Shown: positions 15,627 through 25,982 of the stretch, piece by piece
Numbering within the stretch: position 1 is the first letter of the stretch
Layout: the number at the start of each line of letters is the position of its first letter
Assembly (NCBI GenBank): GCA_963826115.1
Contig: CAWGVS010000005.1
Location: 2,048,001-2,112,000 of the forward strand
Length of the DNA: 64,000 nt
Direction: 5' to 3'
DNA from: an uncultured Candidatus Rokubacteria bacterium
GTDB lineage: Bacteria; Methylomirabilota; Methylomirabilia; Rokubacteriales; DASRDR01
The notes under the pieces: generated by a model
The model's database searches: none
Told to the model about the DNA's origin: nothing
Seen by the model: the letters and a program-made list of their open reading frames with translations, nothing else
Made by a program: the position numbers and the translations under genes

Positions 15627-15768
15627 CCCGTCGAGCCTTCTCGCCCCAGGATCATGTCTCCCTCGGCGGTGCATCGAGGGAACTCGCCTCTCGCCCGCAG
15701 GGTTGCATAATGGAGAGGAGCGCTGCGGAGCTATGACGACTGCGACGCCGCGCTCCAGGAGGCCAAAC

Positions 15769-16791
15769 GTGCAGACGCCCCGCATCGTCGCCACCGGCAC
15801 AGCCGTGCCCGCCCGGCGCTTCACCCAGGAGGAGCTCGCCGACCTCTTCGGCTATGGCGATGGGCTTCAGCGCAGCTTCTTTCACAACAGCGGCATCGAC
15901 GGAAGAAATCTCTACATCACCGCCGCCGAACCCCGGCGCGAGACCATCGACGAGCTGTCGGCCCGATTCGCGGAGGGCAGCGTGCGGTTGGGCGTCGAGG
16001 CCGTCGAGACCTGTCTCGCCCGGGCCGGGCTGGGCACGGCGGACGTCGACTTTCTCGTGACGACGACCTGCACGGGCCGACTCGTCCCGAGCCTCGACGC
16101 ACACCTGATCGGAGCGCTCGGCCTCCGGACAGACGTGCAGCGCGTTCACGTAGGAGACACCGGCTGCGCCAGCGCGATGGTCGCCCTCCAGCAGGCGTGG
16201 AACTATCTCCGTGCCTTCCCGGAGCGTCGCGCGCTCGTCGTGTCGGTCGAGCTGTGCTCCACCACCTACTATCTGGACGACGAGGCGGAGACCGCGGTGG
16301 CGAATGCAATCTTCTCGGATGGGGCCGCCGCGGTGCTCCTCAGCACGAGCGGCGACGGGCCAGAGGTCCTCGGTCACCGGACGCTGATCCGTCCGGAGTA
16401 CCTGGATCGCATGGGATTCACCTTCCCGGGCGGCTCCTATCGCATCCGCTTGTCGCCAGAAGTCCGGCGGATCGCGCCGGCGATGATGGACGAGCTGACC
16501 GGTACGCTCCTCAAGGACCACGATCTCACCAGGGAGGACGTGAGTTTCTGGGTGCTCCACTCCGCTGGCCGGCGGGTGATCGAGAACGCGCAAGCCCTGC
16601 TGGGCCTGTCCGACGCCGATGTCGCCTACTCCCGGGACGTTCTCCGCCGGCTCGGGAATCTTTCGTCCGCCACCGTGCTCTTCGTCCTCGAAGCGGTTCT
16701 CCAGAGCGGCCGGCCGCGGCCGGGCGACGTGGGTCTCATGGTCGCGCTCGGCCCCGGTTTCGCGGCCGAGGGCGCACTGCTCCGATTCTAG
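15769..16791 (+). CDS. Type III polyketide synthase
   Basis: Cys-His-Asn triad: TGCASA, LHSAG, GNLSSA; AGGAGG before GTG; C-terminal GPGF. Confidence 0.9.
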   Translation: MQTPRIVATGTAVPARRFTQEELADLFGYGDGLQRSFFHNSGIDGRNLYITAAEPRRETIDELSARFAEGSVRLGVEAVETCLARAGLGTADVDFLVTTTCTGRLVPSLDAHLIGALGLRTDVQRVHVGDTGCASAMVALQQAWNYLRAFPERRALVVSVELCSTTYYLDDEAETAVANAIFSDGAAAVLLSTSGDGPEVLGHRTLIRPEYLDRMGFTFPGGSYRIRLSPEVRRIAPAMMDELTGTLLKDHDLTREDVSFWVLHSAGRRVIENAQALLGLSDADVAYSRDVLRRLGNLSSATVLFVLEAVLQSGRPRPGDVGLMVALGPGFAAEGALLRF

Positions 16792-16799
16792 GTCTCGTC

Positions 16800-17531
16800 G
16801 TGGCGCCGCTGGCCCGCGAAGCCTCACGCACCGAGTTGATGGATCGGCTCGAGGCGTCCCCCGCCGAGCTCGCCCGGAACCTCGCCGACATCGCCCGTCT
16901 GAACCGGATCGGCGCCACCCAGGCCATCCTGCGGCACGTCGCGCCGTTTCTCGCGCTGCTCTCCCCGGGCGAGACCCTCCGGATCCTCGACGTCGGCACC
17001 GGGGCGGCGGACATCCCGCTGGCCCTCGCGGGATGGGCCCGGCATCACGGTCATCGCGTGCGGATCGTGGCCCTCGAGCTTCATCCGACCATCCTGCGGT
17101 ACGCCGCGCGTGCCGCGACGGGCACGCCCGAGGTGAGCGTCGTCGCGGGCGACGCGCTCGAGACACCGATCCGCCCGGGTTCAGTCGACGTGGCGATCTG
17201 CTCGTTGGTCCTCCACCATCTGCCGGAGGAAGCCGTGGTCGCTCTGCTCCGACGGCTCGCCGACCTGGCGCGCCTTGGCTTCGTCGTGAGCGATTTCCGG
17301 CGGGGACGGGTCGCCTGGGCCGCTGTGTGGCTCGTCACGCGGGCCGTCTCCCGGAGCCGGATGACCCGACACGACGGGCCCCTCTCGGTGCGACGGGCCT
17401 ATACCCCGGAGGAGCTGGCGCTCCTGTCACGACGCGCCGGGCTCCCCGACATCCGGTGGCACCGGGCCCCTGCATTCCGTCAGATCGGCGTCTGGACCCG
17501 CGCGAGCGCCGGGACCGGTCATGACGGCTGA
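16800..17531 (+). CDS. SAM-dependent methyltransferase (type III PKS-associated)
   Basis: ELMD, ILDVGTGAADIP, SLVLHH, TRHDGPLSVRRAYT. Confidence 0.85.
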   Translation: MAPLAREASRTELMDRLEASPAELARNLADIARLNRIGATQAILRHVAPFLALLSPGETLRILDVGTGAADIPLALAGWARHHGHRVRIVALELHPTILRYAARAATGTPEVSVVAGDALETPIRPGSVDVAICSLVLHHLPEEAVVALLRRLADLARLGFVVSDFRRGRVAWAAVWLVTRAVSRSRMTRHDGPLSVRRAYTPEELALLSRRAGLPDIRWHRAPAFRQIGVWTRASAGTGHDG

Positions 17532-18783
17532 TGCCGTCATAGTCGGCGCGGGGCCGGCGGGGGCCGCCACCGCGATCTTCCTCGCTGAGCAGGGGCTTTC
17601 CGTGGTCCTTCTCGATCGCGCGCGATTTCCCCGCGACAAGGTCTGCGGCGAGTACCTCTCGCCGGCGGGGCGCCGGATCCTGGACCGCCTGGGCGTCCTC
17701 TCCAGGGTGGAGGCGCGCGGGGCGCGTAGGCTCCGAGGGATGCGCATCCTCGCGCCCGACGGCACCCTCCTCGTCGCCGACTACCCCACCGATGAACCCT
17801 GGCACGGCCGTCGTCCGTACGCTCTCGCCATGCGTCGTCGGGCGCTCGACCTGGCGCTCGTGGAGCGCGCACGGGAGGTCGGCGTCACGGTCCGCGAAGG
17901 GATGCGCGTGAACGATCTTCTCCGCTCAGGCAGGCGGGTGAGCGGCGTGGTCGCCGAGCCCATCGAGGCCGGAGGACGGGGCCCCGCGGAGCGCGTCTCC
18001 GCGCGGCTGGTCGTCGCCGCCGACGGCCGCACCTCGGTGGTCGCCGAGCGGCTGGGACTCCGGCGCCCGCACCGCTGGCTCCATCGGCTCGCGCTGGTCG
18101 CCGACGTGGCAGGCGCGTGCGGCGACCCCGAGCGAGGCGAGATCCTCCTCGCTCCGCCCCACTACTCGATCCTGAATCCGGTGGCCCCCGGCGTGGGAAA
18201 CCTGAGCCTCGTGGTCCCGATCGAGGAGGCGCGGCGGCAGAAGGCCGATCTTGCTGGCTACTTCGACAGGGCCACCCGGGCCCTGCCGGGATTCCGAGAA
18301 CGACTGCGCGACGCTCGGCGTGTGGGACCGGTCCGCGCCCTGGGCCCTCTCGCCTACCGTGTCGATCCCCCGTCCCAGGACGGGGTTCTCCTGGTGGGGG
18401 ACGCCGCCGGCTTCCTCGATCCCTTCACGGGCGAGGGGATCTACGCGGCCCTCCGCTCCGCCGAGCTCGCGGCGGAGGTCGGAACCCGGGCCCTACGGAC
18501 CGGCGACGTTTCCGCTGCCGCGCTACGGCCCGCTCACGTCCGGCGCGCGGTGGAGTTCGCGGCCAAGACCCGGGTGACCCTTCTCCTCCAGCGTGTCATC
18601 GCTCACCGGGCCCTCTCGGTCGCCGCTGCACGGCTCCTGGCTGCCCGGCCCGCCCATCTTTCGCGCCTGATGGGCGTCCTCGGTGACTTCGTGCGACCGG
18701 GCGCCCTCCTGGCGCCGGGATTCCTCGCCGGTCTCCTTGCACGCCCCCGGTCCCGCCTGGTGCGGTCACCGGAGATCCGCTAA
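17521..18783 (+). CDS. FAD-dependent oxidoreductase (geranylgeranyl reductase-like)
   Basis: VGAGPAG, FPRDKVCGE, ADGR, GDAAGFLDPFTGEGI. Confidence 0.9.
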   Translation: MTADAVIVGAGPAGAATAIFLAEQGLSVVLLDRARFPRDKVCGEYLSPAGRRILDRLGVLSRVEARGARRLRGMRILAPDGTLLVADYPTDEPWHGRRPYALAMRRRALDLALVERAREVGVTVREGMRVNDLLRSGRRVSGVVAEPIEAGGRGPAERVSARLVVAADGRTSVVAERLGLRRPHRWLHRLALVADVAGACGDPERGEILLAPPHYSILNPVAPGVGNLSLVVPIEEARRQKADLAGYFDRATRALPGFRERLRDARRVGPVRALGPLAYRVDPPSQDGVLLVGDAAGFLDPFTGEGIYAALRSAELAAEVGTRALRTGDVSAAALRPAHVRRAVEFAAKTRVTLLLQRVIAHRALSVAAARLLAARPAHLSRLMGVLGDFVRPGALLAPGFLAGLLARPRSRLVRSPEIR

Positions 18784-24467: not shown

Positions 24468-25841
24468 CTAGCCGAACGGGAGGAGCAGCTTCGTCAGGGT
24501 CGCGCGAACCTCGTCGGGCGTCGTGACCCCGACGGCCCGCACGATCCCCTTCTTGTCGACCACGACGTTGTGCGGCACGCCGCGGAGGCCGAGCCGGGCG
24601 ATGTACTCCCCGGTCGCATCGATGAGCACGGTGCCCTGGATGTTGTGGATCTTGCAAAAATGGAGGGCCTCACGCCGTGGATCAACGTGCTCCCACACGT
24701 TGACCATGACGATTTCGAGCCCGAACTTCGCGGCCCGACGACGCACTTCCTCGAGTAGCGGAGCCTCCGCGTTGCAGGGTCCTCACCAGCTGGCGAAGAA
24801 GTTCAGGATGTACTTCTTGCCTCGATACTCCTCCGACGTGCGCGGTTTCCCGTCCGCCATGTCCGGCAAGCTGAACGACGGGAGGGGCTTTCCGATCAGA
24901 GGATGCTGCCAGTCCTTCGGGAGCTCGGCCGGCTCACCGTCCAGCCGATCCTGGAAGATGCTCACCGTGCTGGTGGCCGCGTCCGAGACGTACACGGTTC
25001 CCGACTGCTGGTCGACAGCGAGGTCCCCGGGAGCCTTGCCGACCGGAACCCGCGCCCACTCCCGGCCCGTCTGACGGTCGATCACGCTCACCCGCCCCGT
25101 CCCCCGGTTGGCCGCGTAGATGCGATCACCCGCGCGCCCCAGACCCATGCCTACGGGGGCGCGCTCCACGGTGAGGGTGTCCACGACCTCCTGCTTGTCC
25201 AGGTCCACCACCGCCACCGTGCTGACCAGCGAGTTCGCGACGTAGGCGCGCCCCCGCGGCGCGTCGATGGCGATCTTGCAGGGCGCGTAGTCGAGCTTGA
25301 TCTCCCCGATGGGCTCGTTCGACTGACCGTCGATGACGGTCATCGACGCGTCCCCGAAGTTGACGCAGTAGACGCGGTCCCGCACCGGGTCGGAGCCGAG
25401 GCTGCCCGCCGCGGTCTTGGCCGGCACGGTCGCGATGACCTCCAGCCGGTCGGCGTCGATGACGCTCACGGTGTTGTCCGCCGTGTTCCCGACATAGACC
25501 TTGCGACGCTCCGGATAGAAGCCCGCTCCGGCGGGGTAGTGCTGGACGGGGATCTGCGTGATGGTCTTGAGGGTCGCCGTGTCGATGACGGACACGACGT
25601 CCGAGCGCGCGTCGGTCGTGAACACGTGGCCACCCTGCTTGTCGTGCACGAGCCCGATCGGCTCGCGGCCCACCGGCACCTGGGCCACGACCTCGCGCGA
25701 ATCGAGGTCGAACACGGCGACGCTGTCGCTCCGCGCGCACGCCACGTACCCTCGCCGACCCTCGCCATCGACGGCGATGCCCTCGGGCCCGTAGCCAACT
25801 GGAATCGCGCCTGGCGCGGGGAAGCTCTCCGACGTGCCCAT
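24468..25841 (-). CDS. Predicted selenoprotein: YVTN/YncE beta-propeller fused to TlpA/AhpC-TSA thioredoxin domain with UxxC (Sec TGA at 24783-24785)
   Basis: ORFs 24783-25841 and 24468-24746 are in frame; readthrough gives ILNFFASW-U-GPCNAEAPLLEE, later LRGVPHNVVVD (cis-Pro motif). Confidence 0.85.
24758..24770 (-). promoter_or_regulatory. Candidate bacterial SECIS hairpin
   Basis: GCGGA-GGC-TCCGC beginning 12 nt 3' of the UGA, with G in the loop. Confidence 0.55.
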
Positions 25842-25982
25842 GTGCTCTCCTCGAGACCAAACTCGCTCGTGCTAGGTGAGGGCCGGCGTTCCCGGCTCTG
25901 AGCCCGGCACACTATGCCCGATCACCCTTGGCGTCGCAAGTGATTCATGCCTCGTCGAGGGCTCGGCGCAAGGGGGCCGCCG

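Follow-up and report, generated by a model that had tools for sequence, protein, structure and literature searches.

The question raised by this locus is whether an open reading frame (ORF) that closes at a TGA, together with the frame that follows it, encodes two proteins or one selenoprotein, and what such a protein might do. The window analysed here, a stretch of 64,000 nucleotides from an uncultured Candidatus Rokubacteria bacterium, had previously been interpreted from its letters only, and this sequence-only reading proposed that a 352-residue ORF runs on past its TGA into the next ORF as a protein of 457 residues. Our analysis confirms that frame and supplies its strand, which the reading had not given: on the minus strand the frame opens with an ATG at 25841 and ends with a TAG at 24470-24468, the 352-residue ORF closes with NFFASW, and the sequence after the TGA (24785-24783) reads on in frame as GPCNAEAPLLEE..., giving 457 residues with selenocysteine (Sec, U) at position 353 (Table 1). 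A scan for promoters and terminators found none.

Table 1. Features of the propeller-redoxin gene in the window (positions are those of the window)
Feature	Position	Strand	Basis
Full gene, 457 residues, in-frame TGA read as Sec353	24468..25841	-	Same frame and length in relatives
Shine-Dalgarno-like GAGGAG, 5 nt ahead of the ATG	25847..25852	-	Sequence
Seven-blade YVTN-type beta-propeller, residues 11-298, seven 42-residue repeats	24948..25811	-	TIGR02276, model, fold match, blade register
TlpA/ResA-type redoxin domain, residues 313-453	24483..24905	-	PF08534 and PF00578 over cut-off
In-frame TGA, inferred Sec353, position 1 of W-U-G-P-C	24783..24785	-	TGA in 25/25 and 78/78 copies
Cys356, resolving position of UxxC	24774..24776	-	54/54 full-length members
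Inferred SECIS hairpin, 5 bp, loop GGC closed by A-U, 12-nt spacer	24758..24770	-	Synonymous-site invariance, fold, consensus fit
Cys35, invariant, blade 1 top face, in place of the YVTN Asn	25737..25739	-	54/54 members
Cys188, invariant top-face Cys, blade 5, in predicted redoxin active-site interface	25278..25280	-	54/54; interface list
Cys159, conserved, mid-strand, probably structural	25365..25367	-	53/54; absent from interface list
Cys396, third conserved redox-capable redoxin residue, insert helix	24654..24656	-	52/54
R420-G-V-P423-H424 loop, thioredoxin cis-Pro loop by homology	24570..24584	-	G421, V422, P423 invariant; lowest-error contacts

Conservation of the TGA in close homologs was one of three points on which the sequence-only reading could have failed; none of the three went against it, and the codon is retained in every copy in which we could read it. 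The 25 genome copies comprise the window, a copy on contig C11 and 23 further loci from Rokubacteria, Armatimonadota and unclassified bins (64-96% identity), the closest of which belong to Ca. Rokubacteria/Methylomirabilota genomes and are up to 96% identical. A scan of metagenomes confirmed 490 stretches, the best 80 of which were examined; 78 of these reach the site and all carry TGA, 77 continuing in frame with GPC and one being frameshifted. The scan patterns stopped before the codon or sat elsewhere, and since the query carried Cys at the site a Cys form would not have scored lower. Genome and metagenome copies are kin, overlap and are partly duplicated, so that these counts are not independent. 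A Cys version of the fusion was not found in more than 100 DNA copies, nor was a Cys ortholog present among 11 protein-database matches of 251-800 residues, in the best 120 of 147 shorter matches (by identity and coverage, with seven sequences read), or in the best 150 matches from the representative set, which are mostly long YVTN repeats.

In the protein databases the gene has a different appearance. All 17 homologs P0003-P0019 (43-52% identity) terminate at FASW, and the C-terminal half is deposited as many 'hypothetical' proteins of 79-97 residues. This annotation as two separate proteins is what one would expect if the TGA were a true stop, a sequencing error, or a codon for Trp or Cys, leaving two ORFs or a decayed gene; one entry indeed carries Trp at the site (P0294), which may reflect the gene caller's choice of code, and a few copies are frameshifted (L013, L020, L022, L070). 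Two further database proteins, P0021 and P0260, appear degenerate. A genuine stop, however, would mean that in three phyla every copy encodes a thioredoxin fold broken off at the active site. The residues straight after the TGA (G354, P355, C356) are invariant in all 54 distinct full-length members (62 rows minus shortened, frameshifted and duplicate ones), although no start codon precedes them; the synonymous sites of the hairpin that follows are fixed; and the carriers possess Sec machinery. As to a Trp codon, the host has tRNA-Trp(CCA) and tRNA-Sec(UCA), and the scan showed no further tRNA with a UCA anticodon. In alignments with TlpA-type proteins, both from the host and from databases, the TGA stands at the first Cys of WCxxC. 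On these grounds an explanation without recoding is almost surely wrong, and the internal UGA is in all probability read as Sec, which would make the protein a selenoprotein. RNA-library contigs of relatives, which we did not count as evidence, span the UGA with two or three differences, none of which falls at 24783-24785 among those listed; a search of sequencing runs for the gene returned none that matched even one fifth of the query words. The earlier suggestion that Sec is the nucleophile is in keeping with the Pfam and NCBIfam matches, which place it at the first position of WUxxC and from which we infer its role.

The hairpin that had been noticed 12 nt past the UGA, GCGGA-GGC-UCCGC, is located at 24770-24758. 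Its folding energy is -7.0 kcal/mol with two flanking bases per side (17 nt; z -2.2, with 7 of 200 shuffles doing as well) and -5.6 for the bare 13 nt, against a SECIS criterion of -7.5, and such values depend on the window and the program. Other folds have lower energy once the window is widened (z -0.32 for 81 nt, +0.26 for 50 nt), and we dropped folding energy as evidence for a SECIS because it is not significant at those widths. A different kind of evidence comes from codon choice. Across 30 collinear genes with 84 four-fold sites the third base is invariant at only three, namely the hairpin codons 358, 360 and 361; Glu359 is GAG in 30 of 30, with the nine other invariant Glu codons mixed; and codon 360 is GCT, a codon used at 66 of 1309 other Ala positions. 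Because this synonymous-site conservation exceeds chance, the 13-nt hairpin is very likely a SECIS. In the parts of PMC13188914 that deal with the element, the bacterial consensus has G at the first two loop positions, a flanking pair and a spacing of 16-37 nt; the hairpin agrees with the criteria given there, with 5 bp, loop GGC, an A-U closing pair and a distance of 17 nt from the UGA. In the host, selD, fdh and two other redoxin genes likewise have, at the same distance past their UGA, a hairpin of the same geometry. A scan against Rfam gave no match at E<=1.

All four genes whose presence the sequence-only reading had proposed to verify are found in the host genome (G000): selA (C8:83339-84706), selB (C8:81424-83304), tRNA-Sec, the selC product (C8:85942-86039), and selD (C5:561687-562604). 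The profile scores of selA, selB and selD exceed their cut-offs, and selA, selB and tRNA-Sec lie within 5 kb on C8. The host's selD contains an in-frame TGA of its own, and so does its fdh alpha subunit. Carriers elsewhere are likewise equipped: selA was detected in all eight other carrier genomes tested, five of them Armatimonadota, and in the three from the class of G256 selA, selB and selD all exceed the cut-offs. Within the phylum Methylomirabilota selA is present in 215 of 251 genomes, including 20 of 20 relatives from the host's family, and Sec use looks near-universal in this phylum. The fusion gene is much more narrowly distributed, being found in 16 of the 251 genomes, all of the host's family (15 of the 20 relatives, and the host). 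Our literature search found no relevant paper on selenoproteins of Rokubacteria.

Several minor observations concern the host assembly. It holds further unannotated redoxin selenoprotein candidates with the motifs WUPDC, WUGC and WUPYC (C6:536722-536360, C6:242060-242392 and C2:161010-160636), and a minus-strand match near 917 kb on C5 is a DipZ-like selenoprotein candidate with YGUINC. A tRNA-Pyl(CUA) called by ARAGORN at C12:686301-686373 is probably false, as no pylS match was found in the genome. The copy at C11:51788-53158 (89.5% identical, with TGA) was rejected as a paralog: contig C11 matches C5 over 156.5 of 239 kb at 83.5% DNA identity and is collinear with the window over the 45 kb compared, so that C11 is most likely a co-binned sister genome, which fits the contamination figure of 5.3%.

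Outside Methylomirabilota and Armatimonadota the gene is associated with Actinomycetota. In the class of G256, which is recorded as Actinomycetota, the fusion was found in 3 of 401 genomes; the pattern for this class included the TGA, and its three carriers were left out of the conservation counts. In the phylum of G256 it was found in 0 of 401 genomes by protein search (up to four candidates scored per genome) and in 0 of 401 by pattern search, and plasmids and viral contigs gave no match. In G256 itself (locus L022) the 90%-identical gene sits on a 1.1-Mb contig with Rokubacteria-like neighbours, and this contig is probably misbinned. The members of a distant branch (44-53% identity) are actinobacterial where named (MDA8070135.1; Streptomyces coelicoflavus WP_381569886.1), and the Atlas cluster (score 0.98) is commonest in Actinomycetota. 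The homolog of the cultured S. coelicoflavus (P0150, WP_381569886.1) ends at FASW and is annotated just as a YVTN propeller; some Streptomyces reportedly possess selABCD (PMC4498112). Most proteins of the distant branch (among P0004, P0006-P0008, P0010-P0019, P0148 and P0150) have an N-terminal extension of 20-80 residues, with one extra conserved Cys (of the GPSCRVD or GAACLVP type) that is absent from the window protein. A tree of 70 rows, inferred with a quick method, divides into a near and a far group; the long branches meet at its root, for which reason neither a donor nor a direction of gene transfer can be inferred from it.

The distant branch (L071-L120) also differs in what follows the UGA. 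The short near hairpin is not kept; a long hairpin occupies roughly +12 to +49, and its loop, of the UCGA type, is without the consensus G. All 40 distinct sequences have, further on, a distal 6-bp hairpin with loop GGUCN or GGUUC that begins at +56 or +59, at a distance of 55-58 nt from the UGA. The Arg codon within it is always CGG (42 of 42, against 457 of 1455 overall), and pairing is kept in 225 of 240 cells with changes on both sides; 0 of 2000 shuffles match this, a figure inflated by kinship. The distal hairpin is also present in L141-L143, and L141, without a near hairpin, has yet retained the distal one. The loop GGUCU is the same as that of the host's fdh SECIS, and the fdh genes of the three actinobacterial carriers have their hairpins at the usual +13. 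It is possible that the distal hairpin is a displaced SECIS outside the 16-37 nt rule, a lead rather than a finding; the one paper that a search for such a case returned, PMC13449736, does not describe it in its SECIS passages. This branch lends itself to testing directly how far from its UGA a bacterial SECIS can be placed.

The two parts of the protein can be assigned to known folds. The propeller scores 160.4 bits against a cut-off of 27.85 with TIGR02276, as expected for YVTN repeats with seven 42-residue blades, and the redoxin scores 71.1 against 26.6 with PF08534 and 67.7 against 26 with PF00578; the latter domain also carries the W-U-x-x-C and the G-x-P loop of the TlpA/ResA type. For the whole protein no NCBIfam model reaches its cut-off. 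It is not a TlpA, ResA or DsbE proper (NF002854 60.4 of 170, NF047696 42.5 of 230 and TIGR00385 61.3 of 123.15 bits), nor a YncE (NF052280, 101 bits against 400), nor the ResA-like WAxxUGC protein (NF041054, 47.6 bits against 300), its motif being UGPC and not UGC. An AlphaFold model with Cys substituted for Sec has a mean pLDDT of 90.8, a pTM of 0.90 and a propeller pLDDT of 92-98. The best fold match to the propeller is 1l0q (Z 38.8, rmsd 1.7, 276 residues aligned); fold searches gave matches to the propeller alone, and no solved chain among them matches both domains. A signal-like or membrane stretch was not found in the 457-residue protein by a crude hydropathy scan, in which the first 60 residues peak at 1.14 for a 12-residue window and at 0.86 for the best 19-residue window, in line with the earlier remark that a signal peptide is not evident.

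Conservation among the 54 members is concentrated on one face of the propeller. Invariant positions make up 17 of 56 in the top loops and 1 of 68 in the bottom loops, although part of this top-loop invariance (P, G, N) is a general property of the propeller fold. C35, R37, E60, F162, C188 and R246 are invariant, E20 is 98% conserved and R79 is kept in 48 of 54. In 241 generic propellers position 35 is Asn in 178 of 230, and residues at the others of these positions are mixed. In the redoxin, W352-U-G-P-C356, W383-E384 and G421-V-P423 are invariant and C396 is found in 52 of 54. The relation of these two sets was modelled with a split chain, in which the propeller (1-302) was docked against two redoxin pieces. 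The score was 0.74, the best of three controls reaching 0.00, the runs share at least 62% of contacts, and the partner pLDDT is at least 90. Of solved complexes 116 of 157 reach the docking mark, and of mismatched pairs 2 of 215, figures that apply only roughly to a split-chain job; such a pass supports binding but does not show it, and residue 353 is missing from the docking model. The predicted interface comprises, on the redoxin side, its active-site face (350, 352, 354-355, 358-359, 382-386, 420-424 and 438-443) and, on the propeller side, the top face (17-20, 36-37, 162-163, 185-188, 204-207, 227-230, 246-250, 268-270 and 288-291), with the R420-H424 loop as the main predicted contact of the redoxin. 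The models thus predict that the active-site face of the redoxin docks on the conserved top face of the propeller.

The sequence-only reading had further suggested that several Cys of the propeller could be redox targets. There are three (35, 159 and 188), and the suggestion fares differently for each. It is strengthened for Cys188, which is invariant and named in the interface list, albeit outside its 25 lowest-error pairs. For Cys35 it is plausible: this residue is invariant, and its neighbours 36-37 lie in the predicted interface, which names neither Cys35 itself nor Cys159, Glu60 or Arg79. For Cys159 it is weak, as this mid-strand position is outside the interface and 188 of 239 generic propellers have Val there. 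A direct disulfide between Cys35 and Cys188 is not expected, since blades 1 and 5 are, from propeller geometry, probably too distant.

What function such an arrangement would serve can be stated with reserve only. Our leading, still tentative proposal is that of a single protein in which the Sec site is predicted to lie over a conserved propeller pocket and would re-reduce the protein's own Cys188, forming a self-contained relay. The protein would be cytoplasmic; a small oxidised, probably anionic substrate would bind among Arg37, Arg246, Arg79, Glu20, Glu60 and Phe162 and oxidise Cys188, perhaps with Cys35; Sec353 would then attack the oxidised Cys, Cys356 would resolve the mixed bond, and a cytoplasmic reductant, possibly by way of Cys396, would reset the UxxC. 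Taken together, these steps would make the protein a self-contained selenium-dependent reductase, an interpretation to which we lean without pressing it. The single-chain pTM and the split-chain score support docking of the active site on the pocket, and the plant protein SOQ1 provides a precedent, in the abstract-level account of 10.1101/2024.11.01.621559, for a thioredoxin-like domain that supplies a second, reductase domain of one polypeptide with electrons. Against the relay stand the occurrence of R79 in only 48 of 54 members, the missing Cys35, Glu60 and Arg79 in the interface list, and the fact that NHLRC2, the closest architecture, showed no insulin-reduction activity (PMC6107167).

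The same predicted cleft could be put to other uses. Propeller top faces commonly bind peptides, and the protein may instead be a selenoprotein disulfide reductase, in which a client binds the cleft, Sec353 attacks the client's disulfide, and the propeller Cys serve in binding or structure. The redoxin retains the loop Pro of disulfide reductases (G421-V422-P423, invariant), and the TlpA-like/propeller cleft of NHLRC2 is conserved and proposed as a ligand or partner site in the corresponding part of PMC6107167. In the model, however, the redoxin loop 420-424 is filled with propeller loops 246-249 and 268-270, which would leave little room for a client unless the cleft opens, and two invariant top-face Cys, one of which replaces the Asn of the fold, would be superfluous on a passive platform; we consider this alternative unlikely, if a serious one. 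The invariant cluster of Cys and Glu at the interface also recalls a soft-metal or arsenical site, made of Sec353, Cys356, Cys188 and Cys35 with Glu20 and Glu60, that would bind, sense or detoxify; contacts of Sec with Hg, As and Zn as ligands are predicted for other selenoproteins in the main text of a 2026 review (PMC13188914). Yet metal-resistance or transport genes do not recur as neighbours in the annotated clusters, and the redoxin has an ordinary WUGPC motif whose flanks are canonical, which renders a metal site improbable. A third possibility takes up Cys396. Some peroxiredoxin Q enzymes have their resolving Cys in the helix that corresponds to that of Cys396, and the redoxin alone might act on peroxides with this Cys, conserved in 52 of 54, as the resolving residue and with the propeller just for localisation; the match to PF00578 is compatible with this. 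We give it little credence: Pro423 occupies what we take to be the position of the catalytic Arg of peroxiredoxins, the motif is UxxC and not TxxU, and the conserved pocket of the propeller would be left unexplained.

If the reductase relay and the displaced hairpin are read jointly, the gene would represent a Sec-only family with a new active site, in which a propeller pocket with Cys188/Cys35 and Arg/Glu residues reduces a small oxidised molecule and a selenothioredoxin lid recycles it; in the actinobacterial branch, a displaced SECIS at a distance of 55-58 nt, which the intervening hairpin would bring to the ribosome, would direct UGA recoding and form a new class of bacterial SECIS. This combination is doubtful.

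UxxC redoxin selenoproteins as such are known (Table 1 in the main text of PMC13188914) and have in common with the present gene a TlpA/ResA-type domain, Sec at position 1 of UxxC and a SECIS just past the UGA. The window protein differs from them in its additional 300-residue seven-blade propeller with invariant Cys of its own, and in having no signal-like stretch. It shares the fold and the 42-residue repeat with the seven-blade YVTN/YncE propellers (archaeal surface-layer protein 1l0q, E. coli YncE, hydrazine synthase beta), but where generic YVTN propellers have Asn at 35 and are variable at 37, 60, 188 and 246, its family is invariant. A pairing of thioredoxin-like domain and propeller also has a counterpart in NHLRC2, known from human and from bacterial homologs and, in the relevant passages of PMC6107167, described as having the active site of a TlpA-like thioredoxin domain turned toward a six-bladed NHL propeller, with a conserved cleft between them, and as having no conserved operon. 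Common to NHLRC2/SOQ1 and the window protein is an active-site motif turned toward a conserved interdomain cleft, which for the latter is predicted from the modelled interface and conservation. In NHLRC2/SOQ1, however, the thioredoxin domain comes first, is followed by six NHL blades and has CCINC without Sec, whereas in the window protein the order is reversed, with seven blades and WUGPC; also unlike the window protein, SOQ1 has its reductase Cys in a domain at the C-terminus. Profile comparison with NHLRC2 gives no more than an E of 1.6e-4, over one propeller stretch. The window protein resembles NHLRC2/SOQ1 in layout and is not a member.

The earlier remark that the architecture was unfamiliar stands as far as the fusion itself is concerned, which is absent from the full-text literature searched (subscription journals lie mostly outside it) and from NCBIfam; it does not stand for the pairing of a thioredoxin-like domain with a propeller, as NHLRC2 and SOQ1 demonstrate. 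A propeller is unmentioned in the main text of PMC13188914, including its table of 119 families, and in the available portions of bioRxiv 10.1101/2022.07.06.499078 and of the BSepDB paper (PMC13326102). According to the same portion of the latter, BSepDB searched more than 64,000 genomes with known families, and the UGA of the window may be filed there as a redoxin. The propeller-redoxin family is real and very probably Sec-containing, with an architecture that we did not find described. As an addition to the selenoprotein families, it has been split by gene callers in every database entry retrieved, and the lineages that carry it, from aerobic soil (Rokubacteria, Armatimonadota, Actinomycetota), receive little coverage in the selenoprotein literature found. 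Nearly all selenoproteins have Cys homologs, as the main text of PMC13188914 puts it; here, in contrast, no Cys form turned up in the more than 100 DNA copies, which is unusual and suggests that the chemistry needs selenium. The predicted lid-on-pocket arrangement names residues that can be tested (U353, C356, C188, C35, R37, R246), and the protein would be a compact bacterial counterpart of human NHLRC2, which likewise combines thioredoxin and propeller and whose function is termed undetermined in the text of the 2018 structure paper (PMC6107167).

Gene neighbourhoods vary by lineage, and among the annotated clusters none of the neighbours is common to the whole family. A function based on an operon was rejected for this reason, and adjacent genes for an ABC transporter, an RRM protein and a GH57 protein reflect lineage synteny. 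At seven loci of an Armatimonadota-type lineage (L007, L049, L050, L051, L058, L068 and L099) a PEP mutase gene lies directly downstream on the same strand in 7 of 7. Where the contig extends further, genes for thiamine-diphosphate decarboxylase subunits, a class-V aminotransferase and an iron alcohol dehydrogenase complete a phosphonate biosynthesis cluster, which was not seen in other branches; hairpins are present in between. In the window itself, the plus strand at 15703-18783 carries adjacent ORFs that, judged by eye, resemble a type III polyketide synthase, a methyltransferase-like protein and a flavin oxidoreductase.
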